Shown: piece after piece, positions 4,226 through 28,225 of the stretch
Layout: every line of letters begins with the position of its first letter
How positions within the stretch are numbered: position 1 is the first letter of the stretch
Source of the DNA: a virus
UHGV virus genome: UHGV-0057186
DNA length: 64,000 nt
Reading direction: 5' to 3' (one strand)
Program-made: the position numbers and the translations under genes
The notes under the pieces: model-generated
Databases searched by the model: none
Seen by the model: the letters and a program-made list of their open reading frames with translations, nothing else
Told to the model about the DNA's origin: nothing

Positions 4226-5428
4226 TTATTTTGTAATAATGTCAAACTGTTCTTTAAAGCAGAAGCTTGAATCTTGATGCTGATACAAAAATTCATAAGC
4301 TTTTTCGCGTTCGCGGTCATAAAGAGTTCGATCAGATGACAGTTCTTTAATACGTTCAAATGTTGATTCCATGTCATTTTCATCAAACCAAATGATACCG
4401 CTATCATGCGAGGTCAAAGGAGTATTATCAACACGGAATTTTAAATTTTCGCCAGTAGATTTCCAAAATACCGGAATTGTTCCACATGCACCAAGCTCGA
4501 GATGAGTATATTCTAAAGAACGTTGTAGATATTTTTTATCCAACTTACTCAACTGATAACCAAAACCGGATTTACTCATACGTTCAAGCATTTCGCTATT
4601 TACATAACGGTCAAGAATTTGCGTTGGCAAATTAGAAGCAATTTTAATTTGGTCTACTTGATGAAGACGATAATACTCGTATGGAATTCCTTTTTCTTTA
4701 ATAGGAATGAACGCTGGAGAACGTTCCAGACCTTCCATAATAGTACTTAGTCCTGCAGGTTTAAGATGTTTTTCATGAAAATCAAACATCTGATAAAAAC
4801 CTTTCCATGTGGTCGTACGACCAATCCAACGGTTGATATTCATGTTAATTTCAGAAACATCTTTCCAGTAGGTTGACCGAACCTTCGCAATATCCATAGG
4901 AGGCTGAAAGTTATATACTGTCGGTGCTTCTTCAATATCATCAAACAGAGAAACTGTTTCAGGATACCATTCTTTCATCAGAACTTTATTAAAATCACCA
5001 TTATCAGAATGGCTAAAAATAACATCAGCTCGACGAACAGTTTCTTCTAATCCCAAATTTCGGCGCAAAGAAAGAGAAGAATGGTCATGTTGATAAACTA
5101 CAACACGAACAGAAGGTTTAATGTTATCAATAATTTTTTTATAGTTATTAATAGTGTCTTCTTCAACCGAAGTAGCAGGAACTGAATTGATAATTAGAAT
5201 ATCACAATCATTTACCAGCTTAAGTGTTTTATCATATTCTTTTGCCAATAAAACCGGAATTGAAAATGATTTATAATCATGCGCGCAATTACGAGTAAAT
5301 GATTTATCTTTAGCATAAACCAAAGTTACTTCATGACCATTCTTAATAAACCAATCACGTTGCTCAAGAGAAAATTTAGTTACACCACAACCTTCAAGAC
5401 CTCTAGCCATAAAAATACATACTTTCAT
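4226..5428 (-). CDS. a-gt: DNA alpha-glucosyltransferase (hmC-DNA glucosylation)
   Basis: 400-aa ORF MKVCIFMARGLEGCGVTKFSLEQRDWFIKNGHEVTLVYAKDK..., matches T4 AGT as I recall it in sequence and length. Confidence 0.88.
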   Translation of the reverse strand: MKVCIFMARGLEGCGVTKFSLEQRDWFIKNGHEVTLVYAKDKSFTRNCAHDYKSFSIPVLLAKEYDKTLKLVNDCDILIINSVPATSVEEDTINNYKKIIDNIKPSVRVVVYQHDHSSLSLRRNLGLEETVRRADVIFSHSDNGDFNKVLMKEWYPETVSLFDDIEEAPTVYNFQPPMDIAKVRSTYWKDVSEINMNINRWIGRTTTWKGFYQMFDFHEKHLKPAGLSTIMEGLERSPAFIPIKEKGIPYEYYRLHQVDQIKIASNLPTQILDRYVNSEMLERMSKSGFGYQLSKLDKKYLQRSLEYTHLELGACGTIPVFWKSTGENLKFRVDNTPLTSHDSGIIWFDENDMESTFERIKELSSDRTLYDREREKAYEFLYQHQDSSFCFKEQFDIITK

Positions 5429-21689: not shown

Positions 21690-21890
21690 TTATTTTGACA
21701 TTTCTTCGATGTCACGACGATACCCGTCACGAACTTCACGAAGAGCTTCAAGGCCACACATAGGCTCGATACCAGTAATGTGAACTTGATTAATCTGATA
21801 CTCTACATCTTCTAACTGAGCGAAAACATAACGACGTTCAGCTGCACAACCAGATTTAGCTTTACCGAAACGTTTATTCAAAGTAGTCAT
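21690..21890 (-). CDS. Hypothetical small protein
   Basis: 66-aa ORF with ggag RBS. Confidence 0.45.
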   Translation of the reverse strand: MTTLNKRFGKAKSGCAAERRYVFAQLEDVEYQINQVHITGIEPMCGLEALREVRDGYRRDIEEMSK

Positions 21891-21928
21891 TTTGTATCTC
21901 CAATTTACTCATTTGTTTTGATAGGTCT

Positions 21929-21957
21929 ATAGTATCAACAACTACAGACCATGTAAA
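21929..21957 (-). promoter_or_regulatory. T4-type early promoter
   Basis: Minus strand GTTTACATGGTCTGTAGTTGTTGATACTATAGACCTATCAAAA. Confidence 0.6.
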
Positions 21958-21961
21958 CAAT

Positions 21962-22225
21962 TTATTTTAATTTTCGCCAAATTTTTACTGCTTCTCGCCT
22001 CGATACTTCTACGGCGCCAAGTTCTATAGCTTTTTGACGACGACTTGCACGTAAGTCATAATGTTTAATGCGTTTATCTTGAAACCAAGAACGTTTCATT
22101 CCTATTGCTTCTGCCATTTCGTGAAGCTCTTCAATATCTCCATCAGTGAACATATGACAATTTTTAGTTGGATGACCGCGAAGTTTCCATCCATGATTCA
22201 TTAAAACATCTACGTAAACTGTCAT
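21962..22225 (-). CDS. Hypothetical basic protein
   Basis: 87-aa ORF. Confidence 0.5.
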   Translation of the reverse strand: MTVYVDVLMNHGWKLRGHPTKNCHMFTDGDIEELHEMAEAIGMKRSWFQDKRIKHYDLRASRRQKAIELGAVEVSRREAVKIWRKLK

Positions 22226-22407
22226 TGATTCTTCTCCAAATAAGTTTCGATAATTTTCTGGGCGAGATAAACCGCGTTATCTTCAGTTGCGTCTTCTAAG
22301 AAACTTTCAAAACACTCTGAAATTTCTTCTGTATCAATCAACTTTTTTACTTCAATTGGTGTAATTTTCATTTTGTTTTCCGTTTAAGTGTTTGTTTTGA
22401 TAGTTGT

Positions 22408-22461: not shown

Positions 22462-22485
22462 AAAAAAGGGAGCCCGAAGGCTCCC
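22462..22485 (-). terminator. Intrinsic terminator (gggagccttcgggctccc + TTTTTT)
   Basis: Perfect 7-bp GC stem with CGAA/TTCG loop followed by T-run on minus strand, 3 nt after the NTase gene stop. Confidence 0.7.
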
Positions 22486-22487
22486 TA

Positions 22488-23501
22488 TCATTTATAATAG
22501 CTTCGGTGGTTTTCAAGATAAACCTTCTCAAGGAAGTCATCCCAGAAACCCATGTCTACTTTTTGCTGCATACCGTTCTTAGAAGCTTCAGTAGATGCTG
22601 CTTCTACTTGATCGACCACATCTTCCAAAAACTCTTGAACTGTTTTAAATGGATGTTTACCCAACTTCACGTCGAGAATAAATGGAGCATCTTGGAGTGG
22701 ATAAACCAAGTCACCAGTTTTGTAAATTTCCAATAGTTGGAGTCCACCACGGCAGGCATGGCTCAGAGCTTTCCAGTCAATGCCTTCATTGGCTTCGGCC
22801 TTACGAGCGCGTTCACCGTATTCAGCATCTAATTTGTTCAGTGACTGCTTAAGCTCAATAAGAGAAAGCGTTGTCTGATATTTACGACCCAACACAGTGT
22901 AGAACGTTTGTGGGCCTGTTTTCTCATGATTATGGAACACCCATTCACAGAATTCGTTTTCTGGAAGACGATGCTTAATATCTTCAACTTTAGTACGACG
23001 CTGCTTAATAGAACCATCTTCTTGGTAATCAATCCATTGCTCAGGGATTTGATTAACTACTTTCAATACATCACGTAATGCAGCCAAACGAGAACCCTTG
23101 ACGCCATATTTAGAAGCTTGCTTACGGACATATCCTAAATAGGATTTCATGTTAGTCGTATAAAAACGAGAACGGTTGTCTTGAATAAACTTCCACACAT
23201 CAGGCAAATCAGATTTAACCACTAGTTCAGGTGGAGTGTGAAGCATATCCAATGCTACGGTTTCACCATCTGCTGCTAATTTAAAGAAATATTTAAGACT
23301 GTATAGTTCATGGTCAATATCATCTTTAGTGTTTTTAGATGATGTGTTGTTAGTGTTTTTACTCATATGCTCTTTGACATTTCCGATAAGAATATCGCGA
23401 GCAGGAGGAACAAAGATTTCTTTAAAATCTACATCAGATTCTGGGGTAGAAGTTCCATAAAGATGACTACCAAAATAGCTTTTCATTACTGTTTTCATCA
23501 T
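22488..23501 (-). CDS. Pol-beta-superfamily nucleotidyltransferase-fold protein (function unknown)
   Basis: 337 aa; N-terminal YFGSHLYGTSTPESDVDF (G-S-x11-D-x-D) and later ALDML acidic motif; start overlaps upstream stop in ATGA. Confidence 0.6.
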   Translation of the reverse strand: MMKTVMKSYFGSHLYGTSTPESDVDFKEIFVPPARDILIGNVKEHMSKNTNNTSSKNTKDDIDHELYSLKYFFKLAADGETVALDMLHTPPELVVKSDLPDVWKFIQDNRSRFYTTNMKSYLGYVRKQASKYGVKGSRLAALRDVLKVVNQIPEQWIDYQEDGSIKQRRTKVEDIKHRLPENEFCEWVFHNHEKTGPQTFYTVLGRKYQTTLSLIELKQSLNKLDAEYGERARKAEANEGIDWKALSHACRGGLQLLEIYKTGDLVYPLQDAPFILDVKLGKHPFKTVQEFLEDVVDQVEAASTEASKNGMQQKVDMGFWDDFLEKVYLENHRSYYK

Positions 23502-23971
23502 TCAGCCTTATATTCAATAACAGGACATACTTTAGCTTTACGCGCTTTTAAAAATTCGACGATAATAGATTTCTTGGGTTGAATAGGAGGTAAACCTTTA
23601 TACGCCCTATCAATATTTTCTACATGTAAAGCATAATCCTTTTTCCATTTATAATCTTTATATTTTTCACGCAGTTGTGCAGGAATAACAAATGAACCGA
23701 TAATAAGTAAAACAAGCAAAATGGCAAGTATAAATGCTGATGGAATAAGAGTCCATAAACTACCAAAAATAAGCCATTTCTGCATGATTTCTGCGCAGAT
23801 AATAGTTAGACCTACGAGTATAGTACATCCGAAAAAAGAAACGAAAAATGTAGGAATAACAATAGACCAAAAATACGCGCACAGTGTCTTAGGTCGTTGC
23901 CATTCATCGTTAAACAATTTGAATAATTTATAGTGCCAAGAGTTTTCATTAATAATCATAATTATAATCAT
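23498..23971 (-). CDS. Small polytopic membrane protein, translationally coupled to downstream NTase
   Basis: 157 aa; hydrophobic stretches YFWSIVIPTFFVSFFGCTILVGLTIICAEI and LIFGSLWTLIPSAFILAILLVLLIIGSFVIP; basic C-terminal tail. Confidence 0.55.
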   Translation of the reverse strand: MIIIMIINENSWHYKLFKLFNDEWQRPKTLCAYFWSIVIPTFFVSFFGCTILVGLTIICAEIMQKWLIFGSLWTLIPSAFILAILLVLLIIGSFVIPAQLREKYKDYKWKKDYALHVENIDRAYKGLPPIQPKKSIIVEFLKARKAKVCPVIEYKAE

Positions 23972-24489
23972 CCTTTCATTGAAGGCGTAACGGTTGTTAA
24001 ATACTTAATCATAGCTTCAGCTTCTGATTTTGATAATGAAATTTCTCCATTGTTTTGACGAATAGAAATAAAATCCGGATGACGGTCACCACCGGCTTTT
24101 AAAACACACATATAAGTATCAGTTTCATCTTCAATATTTGAAATGATTGAAGCAGTTCCACACGAATGTGGTTTTTGATAAATCAATACAGCTTTTCTTC
24201 CACCATTTGACTGTTCATAAACTTTTAATACATCAAACAAATCACTTCTTTTATCAATAGCTAAAATGTTGTTTTCATCTTCAATGTTAAATCCTTCGGA
24301 TACTTCATAAAGTGTCACCCATAAATCACCTATATCGATAGTAGCATTTTCCTTTCCATGACTTTCAAGAGCATGACAAATTTTCTTGATTTCGTCATAA
24401 CTCATTTTAATAATATCATCTCCTTGACTAAGAAAGATGTCATTTTTAAATTCAACACGAATTAAACCGCTTCCACTTGAAATAAACAT
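23968..24489 (-). CDS. Hypothetical protein, paralog B of tandem pair
   Basis: 173 aa; C-terminus SKSEAEAMIKYLTTVTPSM resembles neighbour. Confidence 0.55.
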   Translation of the reverse strand: MFISSGSGLIRVEFKNDIFLSQGDDIIKMSYDEIKKICHALESHGKENATIDIGDLWVTLYEVSEGFNIEDENNILAIDKRSDLFDVLKVYEQSNGGRKAVLIYQKPHSCGTASIISNIEDETDTYMCVLKAGGDRHPDFISIRQNNGEISLSKSEAEAMIKYLTTVTPSMKG

Positions 24490-24495
24490 ATTTCC

Positions 24496-25038
24496 TCACT
24501 TTGAAATCATAGTTGGAATGACAGAATCAAGATAAGTCTTTAACGCAATAGCTTCGTCTTTGGTAAATGTGACAATATGCGCTCGAAAATCATCAATTTG
24601 ACGAATAGTTAAGACATCTCCATCTTCATAACATTTTGATACATTTAAAACAGTTTCATCATTCTGATCGCACTGATCGCAAGCGTTAGTAATAATAGCA
24701 TTGCAATTTTTAAGCCATTTTAAACTATGTTTTCTTTCATTAGAATAATAAAAATATTTAATGTAAGTTATAAAATTATCCCAATTATTAATTGATAAGC
24801 ATATTGACTCGCTTTCAATGTTAAATCCTGGGCATAAAGAATAGAAATGAATTTTATGCTCATCATTAATGCTTACAATTTTATCAGTGTAAGGTTTTTC
24901 AATTTGGGTTAAATGAATAATTTCGCTAGGCGTAAAATATAGCATATCGTCTTCTTGCGTCAAACGATACATATTATTTACTTTTTCTATAGCCAATTCA
25001 CCAAAAAATGAACTAACTTCTAATACTAATCGTTTCAT
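24496..25038 (-). CDS. Hypothetical protein, paralog A of tandem pair
   Basis: 180 aa; shares GFNIE motif and C-terminus TKDEAIALKTYLDSVIPTM with neighbour. Confidence 0.55.
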   Translation of the reverse strand: MKRLVLEVSSFFGELAIEKVNNMYRLTQEDDMLYFTPSEIIHLTQIEKPYTDKIVSINDEHKIHFYSLCPGFNIESESICLSINNWDNFITYIKYFYYSNERKHSLKWLKNCNAIITNACDQCDQNDETVLNVSKCYEDGDVLTIRQIDDFRAHIVTFTKDEAIALKTYLDSVIPTMISK

Positions 25039-25039
25039 A

Positions 25040-25318
25040 TTAATCCTTTTTATTTGCGCTGATTTGTTCTAAAATTTTAGAGTATTCCTTTGTATCAGAT
25101 TTACGTACAATTGATACACTATAAGGCATACTATCGGTGTCTTTTATAAAGCGTTCCAAATGACACTCTAACAAAATTTCTGGATTATAAATCGTGTACA
25201 TCAAATTACCTGTTGCTCCACGATATTGGCAGATTTCTACTGATTGAACACCATTCCATAATTTTGTTAAAACTAAGTCACCTACTTCTAATTTAGGAAA
25301 ACTCATATTATTCACCAA
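25040..25318 (-). CDS. Hypothetical protein
   Basis: 92-aa ORF. Confidence 0.5.
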   Translation of the reverse strand: MVNNMSFPKLEVGDLVLTKLWNGVQSVEICQYRGATGNLMYTIYNPEILLECHLERFIKDTDSMPYSVSIVRKSDTKEYSKILEQISANKKD

Positions 25319-25493
25319 TTAAAGTTTCAATATAAGAATCAAGATTTACTTTAGCTTCTTCCATAAGAGTTTTGTATTTAATCTTGTTAGCATGTCCGGA
25401 GAAAGCTGATTCATCAATAATTGTTGATGTATGAACAGCTTTACTATACGTCTCAATTAATTCTCTTAATTTAAAAGCCTGCTCACTTGTCAT
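25308..25493 (-). CDS. Small helical protein (member of local small-paralog family)
   Basis: 61 aa; aggag RBS 7 nt upstream of ATG 25493. Confidence 0.5.
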   Translation of the reverse strand: MTSEQAFKLRELIETYSKAVHTSTIIDESAFSGHANKIKYKTLMEEAKVNLDSYIETLIGE

Positions 25494-25625: not shown

Positions 25626-25655
25626 ACTATACCATAACCTTGCCAACTTGTAAAC
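25626..25655 (-). promoter_or_regulatory. T4-type early promoter heading the accessory cassette
   Basis: Minus strand GTTTACAAGTTGGCAAGGTTATGGTATAGTAATC. Confidence 0.6.
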
Positions 25656-25820
25656 CATTAAATGACGTTTTCAATAAAATTCTGAAGCTTTGTGTGAGCA
25701 TCAACCATGATTTTCATTTCTTCTTTTGCGAAAGCTGTACCTCTTTCCCGAGCAGAATACTCATAGTCAGAAACTGCATTAGCATATTCTTCAATTAGTT
25801 TCATTAAAAACATCTGCTTT

Positions 25821-26015
25821 TCAGTTTTCATTATTCCACCTAATCATTTCAAGATATTGAACTAACTTAGCTTTAGATTTATCCAAATCCTTTTTAGCTG
25901 CTTCTATACCGTCGTATGAATATCCTTCACAATGCTCAACTGCTAATTGATATGAATCTATTTCAATATCACGTGCTAATTTAATGATTTTTTCAAACTG
26001 TTCGCGTGTTAGCAT
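25821..26015 (-). CDS. Small helical protein (small-paralog family)
   Basis: 64-aa ORF. Confidence 0.45.
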   Translation of the reverse strand: MLTREQFEKIIKLARDIEIDSYQLAVEHCEGYSYDGIEAAKKDLDKSKAKLVQYLEMIRWNNEN

Positions 26016-26017
26016 AC

Positions 26018-26257
26018 TTAAACTCTCGTATTATGATCGATAATTTCATCAAGAAACATATCTAACGCTTCTAAAGCATTATCCACTTTAGTTTCAAAGT
26101 CTTTAATGCCTTTATTCGAAATACCCGATGAATACCAAGCAAAGTTAATGCGCTCCTCGTCTGCTTTACGAATTAAAGCTACCAATTCCTTAATTTTATC
26201 AGCTTGTTCGATACTAATCATTATTCCACCACATATGAAAGAGAGAATATTGCACAC
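26018..26257 (-). CDS. Small helical protein (small-paralog family)
   Basis: 79-aa ORF. Confidence 0.45.
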
Positions 26258-28039: not shown

Positions 28040-28225
28040 TTAAAGCGTATTCACATAAGCTATTAATTCATTTTCTTTCTTATCAAACCGATCAGCAAAT
28101 TCTTCCTGCTGTTCAGGAGATAGCGGGCCGTATTCATCATAAAAGGTGTTTGCTTCTGTATGCTCATCTAGAAGTTCATGGATAAGCTCAAACAATTTAT
28201 CTTTTTGTTCTTTGCTTAGGCTCAC
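28040..28225 (-). CDS. Small helical protein
   Basis: 61-aa ORF. Confidence 0.45.
   Translation of the reverse strand: MSLSKEQKDKLFELIHELLDEHTEANTFYDEYGPLSPEQQEEFADRFDKKENELIAYVNTL

Follow-up and report, generated by a model that had tools for sequence, protein, structure and literature searches.

Results

Two MobD.1-family paralogs lie in tandem in the nrdC–tk early region

The DNA analyzed here is a 64-kb window (the whole stretch examined) of the virus genome UHGV-0057186, which belongs to Tequatrovirus. Its minus strand carries two adjacent genes in the nrdC–tk early region, here named A (24496..25038, 180 amino acids (aa)) and B (23968..24489, 173 aa). The first-pass annotation of the window had described these two open reading frames (ORFs) as a diversified pair of paralogs that arose by tandem duplication, located next to an enzyme and a membrane protein and typical of a specificity or immunity module. 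Both ORFs were confirmed at these positions. The enzyme and the membrane protein were also confirmed, as NrdC.11 (22488..23501) and a small membrane protein (23498..23971). Over the 3.6 kb that surround the gene pair, identity is 99.7% with Escherichia phage vB_EcoM_FJ1 and 96–99% with T6, RB32-like and many further phages, and every gene of this stretch is on the minus strand.

A and B share 29% identity and 51% positives over 178 columns, which is near full length (BLASTP, E = 3e-12). The alignment takes in the GFNIE block and the C-terminal block (TKDEAIALKTYLDSVIPTM in one protein and SKSEAEAMIKYLTTVTPSM in the other), by which the relationship had first been noticed by eye. These blocks are the best-conserved parts of a similarity that spans both domains, and not isolated short motifs. 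Both proteins match the Pfam families PF24449 (T4_y05I_N; 1.3e-39 and 135.3 bits for A, 6.7e-33 and 113.7 bits for B; gathering score 24.9 bits) and PF24448 (T4_y05I_C; 2.2e-23 and 82.8 bits for A, 4e-23 and 82.0 bits for B; gathering score 27 bits). They also match phrog_1502 (3e-80 for A and 1e-66 for B). Together, the BLASTP, Pfam and PHROG matches indicate true homology over both domains. No third copy was found within the window with hidden Markov models (HMMs) of three sub-regions.

A is 83% identical to T4 MobD.1 (Y05I_BPT4) and has the same flanking genes, and is therefore its ortholog. B is 25% identical to T4 MobD.1 and represents a second copy of the family, a paralog rather than the ortholog, which T4 does not have. 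By sequence comparison, A and B are genuine paralogs of the MobD.1/y05I family (PF24449 plus PF24448; PHROG 1502), and their membership is established. They share with T4 MobD.1 the position between the small mobD.2–mobD.5 genes and nrdC.11. T4 has one MobD.1 copy and carries mobD in place of a downstream membrane-protein gene, whereas the phage of the window has two copies followed by the membrane-protein gene. The paralogy is already catalogued in GenBank, as 'MobD.1-1/MobD.1-2' in Yersinia phage PST and as 'mobD.1a/mobD.1' in ime09, and the tandem pair is an ordinary, catalogued accessory gene pair of T4-like phages. The Pfam family label 'putative transcription factor' is a name only. Literature searches found no functional data for 'MobD.1' or 'y05I', only a table entry in a homing-endonuclease review and irrelevant matches.

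The pair is part of a tightly packed six-gene unit

The pair lies within a tightly packed unit of six genes, which runs 5' to 3' on the minus strand in the order DUF7438, tudor, A, B, membrane protein and NrdC.11. Upstream of the six genes is a promoter-like site of the T4 early type (25626..25654, minus strand; TTTACA, 17 nt, TG-TATAGT). It agrees with the consensus at 10 of 12 positions and has the extended -10 TG, and this call is a consensus match only and not functional evidence. The first gene past the site encodes a small DUF7438 protein of 61 aa (25308..25493, PF24219, 1.4e-15). Directly upstream of A is the gene of an 88-aa phage tudor-domain protein (25040..25306, PF24144 Phage_tudor, 2.7e-40), whose stop is separated from the start of A by 1 nt. 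Between the stop of A and the start of B there are 6 nt, and the 3' end of A contains a GAGGA Shine-Dalgarno sequence. The stop of B overlaps the start of the membrane-protein gene (ATGA). This gene encodes a small basic inner-membrane protein of 153-157 aa (isoelectric point (pI) 9.35), which matches phrog_944 'membrane protein' (6.5e-50), and its stop in turn overlaps the start of nrdC.11. NrdC.11 (337 aa) is the last protein of the unit and is identified by Pfam and phrog_388 as an RlaP (PF10127) nucleotidyltransferase of the Pol-beta type. Directly after nrdC.11, a terminator scan found a GC-rich hairpin of 8 pairs, 6 of them G-C, with a T-run (22467..22486, minus strand), also as a consensus match only. 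A rho-independent terminator is annotated at the same position in phage wV7. Judged from the sequence, the hairpin and T-run are likely the end of the transcription unit.

Distribution and allelic variation of the family

The MobD.1 family is a narrow one, largely confined to Tevenvirinae; only 24 proteins were returned when 1.84 billion cluster representatives were searched with a profile. B is present at an identity of at least 90% in about 434 phage records. The T4 arrangement (nrdC.11–mobD–mobD.1) was found in only 47 of the 505 matching phage records. In T4, the HNH homing endonuclease gene mobD (NC_000866, 12430..13209) stands exactly where the window has B and the membrane-protein gene (23498..24489). 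The literature lists no known cleavage target for MobD (PMC2988022), and an obvious candidate for it is the B/membrane-gene region in phages that lack mobD.

The A slot is dimorphic in Tequatrovirus. The T4-like allele, A1, is 84–100% identical to A of the window in the sampled loci. The second allele, A2, is about 50% identical to A1 overall and occurs in otherwise near-identical Tequatroviruses. Either allele adjoins a near-unchanged B. Upstream of A, the tudor gene is present in four of the eight A1 loci; three of the four A2 loci lack it. It also precedes family genes that encode only the C-domain in other genera.

Other gene complements were found in related phages. Dhakavirus-type phages have a single full-length family gene, and the metagenomic phage L025 has a B-type gene (B') only. 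Proteins that consist of the C-domain only (70–87 aa) are present in Tegunavirus, Gelderlandvirus and Klebsiella T4-like phages, and their genes form tandem pairs in Gelderlandvirus-type phages. In Salmonella phage SEA1 (L033, 2152..3460), a tudor gene is followed by tandem C-only genes (78 and 76 aa) and then by a membrane-protein gene. About 2 kb downstream are a third C-only copy (4754..5005, E = 8e-13) and a second tudor paralog. The SEA1 membrane protein looks as if its C-terminus were fused to an rI.-1-like tail, and nrdC.11 was not seen in the SEA1 stretch fetched.

The A/B split is deep and both genes are under purifying selection

The relationship of the family members was examined with a neighbor-joining tree (50 bootstrap replicates), which was rooted on the most divergent member, P0064. 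The B clade, including B' of L025, falls outside a group of A1, A2 and the Dhakavirus-type single genes that has 98% support; this is the result of a distance method with a long-branched root, and recombination is possible. The tree and the B-only phage L025 suggest that the A/B split is older than those lineages, or that the two types were joined by recombination or B was imported. A recent local duplication was rejected because of the depth of the split. The description of the pair as a tandem duplication followed by divergence is therefore right in that A and B are diverged tandem paralogs, but not in the sense of a recent duplication in situ.

The ratio of nonsynonymous to synonymous substitution rates (dN/dS) was estimated by the Nei–Gojobori method from 4–11 Tequatrovirus sequences per gene, a small and non-independent sample. 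It was 0.15 for B, 0.23 for A1 and 0.38 for A2. The neighboring genes gave 0.16 (membrane protein), 0.13 (tudor) and 0.06 (nrdC.11). These values indicate that both paralogs are kept by purifying selection, and gene-wide positive selection was not seen for either paralog. The term diversified, which had also been applied to the pair, holds for the two alleles of the A slot but not as a statement about diversifying selection. The possibility that B is an artefactual ORF or a decaying copy was rejected on dN/dS and conservation.

The two domains diverge at different rates. A1 and A2 are 37% identical in the N-domain versus 67% in the C-domain, and B and B' are 39% identical in the N-domain versus 78% in the C-domain. 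In both comparisons, the N-domain diverges faster.

The pair is lost, fused or replaced in natural phages

All eight T2-type records (seven T2 and one SV76) have an identical sequence, in which both A and B are frameshifted pseudogenes. In T2 (L003, PV958097, 2440..3519), A has -2 and -1 frameshifts and a 9-bp deletion, and B has -1 and -2 frameshifts. The frameshift pair sums to -3 in each gene, with about 77 codons out of frame in each, and the tudor gene is absent. What had looked like a '57% identical B allele' of T2 is this pseudogene of B with its two frameshifts, and no divergent allele.

A natural hybrid gene replaces the pair on six Logan metagenome contigs. Codons 1-129 of A are joined in frame to the C-terminal part of B, and the junction is a shared, in-register 10-nt sequence, GATGAAACTG. 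The C-domain of the hybrid is itself chimeric, with strands 1–2 from A and the remainder from B. Together with the stand-alone C-only proteins and their tandem gene pairs, the hybrid indicates that the C-domain is a module in its own right. The four places shown (L005:5001-5540, L006, L007 and L008) come from four sequencing runs. The hybrid gene shows unequal recombination between the tandem paralogs. In addition, several database proteins (P0045, P0046 and P0012) are products of deletion fusions in this region. Two of them, including one from a T4 variant, join the N-terminus of MobD.1 to the C-terminus of NrdC.11, and in phage TadeuszReichstein the B C-domain follows a MobD.5-like N-terminus. 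Such fusions identify the locus as a hotspot of deletion.

The module is also absent, in whole or in part, from viable phages. T4 itself has neither B nor the membrane protein, and viable T4 without nrdC.11–mobD.3 was recovered in a CRISPR genome-reduction study (PMC9825161). The genes missing from T4, the T2 pseudogenes, the viable T4 deletion, the hybrid gene and the replacement by mobD together indicate that the gene pair and its module are accessory and non-essential in laboratory growth.

A and B are predicted to contain three PUR-type repeats

Monomer models of A and B were built with AlphaFold2 from the shallow family alignment of 24 sequences. The mean predicted local distance difference test (pLDDT) score was 89.5 for A and 86.5 for B. 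The predicted template modeling (pTM) score was 0.55–0.61, as expected for two domains joined by a flexible linker. Both proteins are predicted to have the same fold of three PUR-type ββββα repeats, with a predicted secondary structure of [4β+α][4β+α][5β+α] for A and [3β+α][4β+α][5β+α] for B. Repeat I and repeat III are also related in sequence (hhalign probability 86%, E = 4.8e-6). Their HMMs cross-match reciprocally, and they have the pattern [LI]xQxDD…[ST]xxExxxL in common. The most conserved element of the family is the C-terminal helix block FTKxEAxALxxYLxSVIPTM.

The predicted models show significant 3D similarity to solved members of the PC4-like/PUR class, with an identity of 4–18% in the structural superpositions, and the best structural match of the whole predicted model is the repeat I-II domain of Pur-alpha. 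The matches of the same fold include members without a nucleic-acid role, namely SsgA and the DUF4176 chaperones. No Pfam match to PurA, Whirly or PC4 was obtained for A or B at E ≤ 1, and the Pur-alpha sequence family (Pfam PurA) was rejected for lack of a PUR-profile match. A profile search of PDB sequences returned no PUR, PC4 or Whirly chain and gave only insignificant matches to ABC transporters (E ≥ 0.07). The KGKAAL-like motif of Whirly proteins is absent from the sequences of A and B, and a Foldseek search of the BFVD viral structures returned family members only and nothing annotated beyond them. The models support membership of A and B in the PC4-like/PUR fold class. Because no Pfam or PDB sequence match was found, the relation to Pur-alpha, PC4 and Whirly is at the fold level only. 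This predicted likeness in fold probably explains the Pfam label 'putative transcription factor'.

Two repeats of a single chain (type I), or one repeat from each of two chains (type II), make up a PC4-like domain, with the helices swapped, and one repeat by itself is not likely to fold (PMC7549692). Pur-alpha was the only protein known to combine both types, and it dimerizes via repeat III (PMC7549692). In Pur-alpha (PURA), PUR repeats I-II form the type I domain and repeat III forms the type II dimerization domain, and the models of A and B predict the same layout. The differences are considerable: the identity to Pur-alpha is 4-12% in structural alignments, A and B are acidic (pI about 4.9) whereas Pur-alpha is basic, and A and B are phage proteins whereas Pur-alpha is eukaryotic. 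The trypanosome guide-RNA-binding heterotetramer MRP1/MRP2 was also compared with A and B; MRP1/2 are very basic RNA binders and have no separate C-terminal half-domain. The SsgA-like proteins of actinomycetes have a Whirly-like fold and bind protein rather than nucleic acid. They are single-domain proteins of cell division with no sequence relation to A and B. Single-repeat Pur-alpha of Borrelia and PC4-like proteins of phage T5 and bacteria are type II homodimers without sequence similarity to A and B. Unlike these, the phage C-domains have the family-specific end YLxSVIPTM, and a membrane-protein gene always adjoins them.

The family is strongly acidic

Binders of single-stranded DNA (ssDNA) or RNA predominate in the fold class, and its nucleic-acid-binding members (Pur-alpha, PC4, Whirly and MRP) have basic and aromatic β-sheet faces. 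A and B have pI values of 4.98 and 4.82. All full-length members of the family have a pI of 4.2–5.0 and a net charge of −8 to −22, and the sole exception in the family is a stand-alone C-domain protein (P0059, pI 9.2). The predicted β-strands are rich in Glu and Asp. With charge as a proxy, A and B do not appear to have the basic or aromatic face expected of an ssDNA/RNA binder. Given this strong acidity, a basic protein is a likelier ligand than naked nucleic acid, or A and B may themselves be nucleic-acid mimics.

The membrane-protein gene accompanies the family

In 26 related loci examined, the membrane-protein gene directly follows the family gene in all but the T4 type, and an overlap between the stop of the family gene and the start of the membrane-protein gene is common. 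NrdC.11 is located downstream in all such loci except that of Gelderlandvirus SEA1, and 0-2 ORFs sometimes lie between it and the membrane-protein gene. The cytoplasmic ends of the membrane protein are conserved across genera (MxINxxSWHxxxH...RPxSLCxYFWK at the N-terminus and FIKARKxKxCPxIxF at the C-terminus), and its hydrophobic core is poorly conserved. No Pfam family was found for this protein.

NrdC.11 matches Pfam RlaP with 2.5e-11 and 44.2 bits, compared with a cut-off of 23 bits, and phrog_388 with 8e-137. T4 NrdC.11 has been placed in the RlaP family by a bioRxiv preprint (PMC12776372). In bacteria, RlaP members extend damaged RNA 3' ends by 1–2 nucleotides and have been tied to RNA repair (PMC12776372; PMC7824862). 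By analogy, this suggests that NrdC.11 may be an extra component of T-even RNA repair.

Other elements were observed in and near the six-gene unit. The DUF7438 (PF24219) proteins, of 57-67 aa, form the second and larger tandem paralog family of the region. Four of their genes lie in tandem directly upstream of tudor and A on the minus strand (25308-25493, 25658-25831, 25821-26015 and 26018-26221), and a fifth lies past tk on the same strand (28040-28225). They correspond to T4 mobD.2a-mobD.4 and tk.1/tk.2. A variable mini-cassette is located between nrdC.11 and nrdC.10 (21690..22371, minus strand), with ORFs for a 49-aa protein, an 87-aa DUF4031 protein and a 66-aa protein. In T2 and in the phages with the hybrid gene, this position is taken by a Mod-like ADP-ribosyltransferase (PF26816), and in T4 nrdC.10 comes directly after nrdC.11.

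Discussion

The favored explanation combines the predicted fold with dimerization. Repeats I and II (about residues 1–100) would form a complete intramolecular PC4-like domain of type I. The C-terminal repeat would be a type II half-domain, which, following what is published on the fold class, could fold only by swapping the conserved terminal helix with a second copy. A and B would then work as dimers, either A–A, B–B or A–B. The requirement for the C-domain to pair fits the conserved helix block, the stand-alone C-domains, the tandem pairs of C-only genes and the survival of the chimeric C-domain in the hybrid gene. The fast-diverging N-domain may be a target-recognition head, and the conserved C-domain may serve dimerization and anchoring. 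The whole could be a membrane-associated accessory complex that acts on an RNA- or DNA-related target of the host or the phage. A membrane-associated complex is favored because the basic membrane protein is the most consistent partner of the family, with NrdC.11 further downstream. Built on structure prediction and analogy, the fold-plus-dimer model as a whole, in which the dimer is an acidic adaptor or mimic that associates with the membrane protein, is considered moderately probable.

Several points weigh against this model. The dimerization rests on a fold analogy applied to predicted monomers from a 24-sequence alignment, and with a pTM of only 0.55-0.61 it is uncertain how the domains are oriented to each other. 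The conserved gene order is weak evidence for an interaction, since T4-like genomes are broadly colinear. T4 keeps MobD.1 without the membrane protein, which indicates that the link between the two is not obligatory. The fold does not fix the ligand, since SsgA and the DUF4176 chaperones have the same fold and are not known as nucleic-acid binders. Finally, the literature contains no experimental datum for any family member.

The nature of the ligand and the role of the neighbors allow other explanations. A and B could be classical ssDNA/RNA binders in the manner of Pur-alpha, PC4 or Whirly, a role that most members of their fold class have. They would then act either as early transcription factors, in line with the Pfam label, or as RNA-recognition cofactors that hand damaged tRNA or RNA ends to NrdC.11 in repair against host anticodon nucleases. 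The acidity of all full-length members argues against nucleic-acid binding, as does the absence of Pfam PurA, Whirly and PC4 matches. The ORFs that often lie between the membrane-protein gene and nrdC.11 also count against this explanation, as does T4, in which the homing endonuclease gene parts mobD.1 from nrdC.11. We regard this explanation as rather unlikely. The specificity or immunity module proposed in the first-pass annotation would make the paralogs and the membrane protein a superinfection-exclusion, immunity or anti-defence cassette, in which the variable N-domains track host or competitor targets. The A alleles, with their low N-domain identity between flanking genes that are about 95% identical, speak for such a cassette. 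So do the membrane protein next to the pair, the tendency of the region to recombination and deletion, and the early and non-essential character of the genes; small acidic early proteins are typical of host-takeover and anti-defence functions. No direct evidence for the module was obtained, however. No toxin, nuclease or other effector partner is present, and PADLOC gave zero matches for A, B, the membrane protein, NrdC.11, the tudor protein and NrdC.10, for which the NCBIfam scan was likewise empty. Every dN/dS value is well below 1, B is highly conserved with an identity of at least 92% in about 430 phages, and the allelic divergence resembles the replacement of a cassette by recombination more than diversifying selection in place. 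An immunity or specificity role is quite improbable on this evidence.

Another conceivable reading is that the duplication is recent and redundant and that one copy is decaying; the pair would then have no distinct function and would be a neutral by-product of the hyperplastic region. The two pseudogenes of T2, the loss of B in T4 and the hybrid and deletion-fusion variants in nature are what such decay would produce. Yet in 11 diverse Tequatroviruses neither copy is disrupted and both are under purifying selection, and B is conserved throughout its many records. The A/B split is deep, with its 98% bootstrap support, each gene has a good Shine-Dalgarno sequence, and their spacing is compact and coupled. 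The sequence analyses of dN/dS and of the tree have already largely refuted this reading, which we consider very improbable.

A more specific form of the adaptor model can be drawn by analogy. [quoted passage not shown] An A–B heterodimer, formed via the C half-domains, would dock on the basic cytoplasmic termini of the membrane protein. It would then act as a mimic or adaptor that controls NrdC.11 or an RNA/DNA-binding defence protein of the host. In this detail the proposal is speculative and, taken as a whole, unlikely to be correct. If it is true, the N-domain alleles A1, A2 and B would be target-specificity variants.

The gene pair is a routine feature of a hyperplastic region in T4-like genomes, and the genes, the family and the paralogy have all been catalogued before. 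What is new is the predicted three-repeat layout resembling Pur-alpha with a dimerization half-domain, which offers a structural hypothesis for an uncharacterized family of T4 early genes. The near-uniform acidity of the family and its conserved coupling to a small membrane protein beside the RlaP nucleotidyltransferase NrdC.11 are also new. So are the natural hybrid, pseudogene and homing-endonuclease replacement variants, by which the module is shown to be accessory. If the dimer/adaptor model is true, it would give a function to several T4 ORFs and may, more speculatively, tie them to phage RNA repair or counter-defence.

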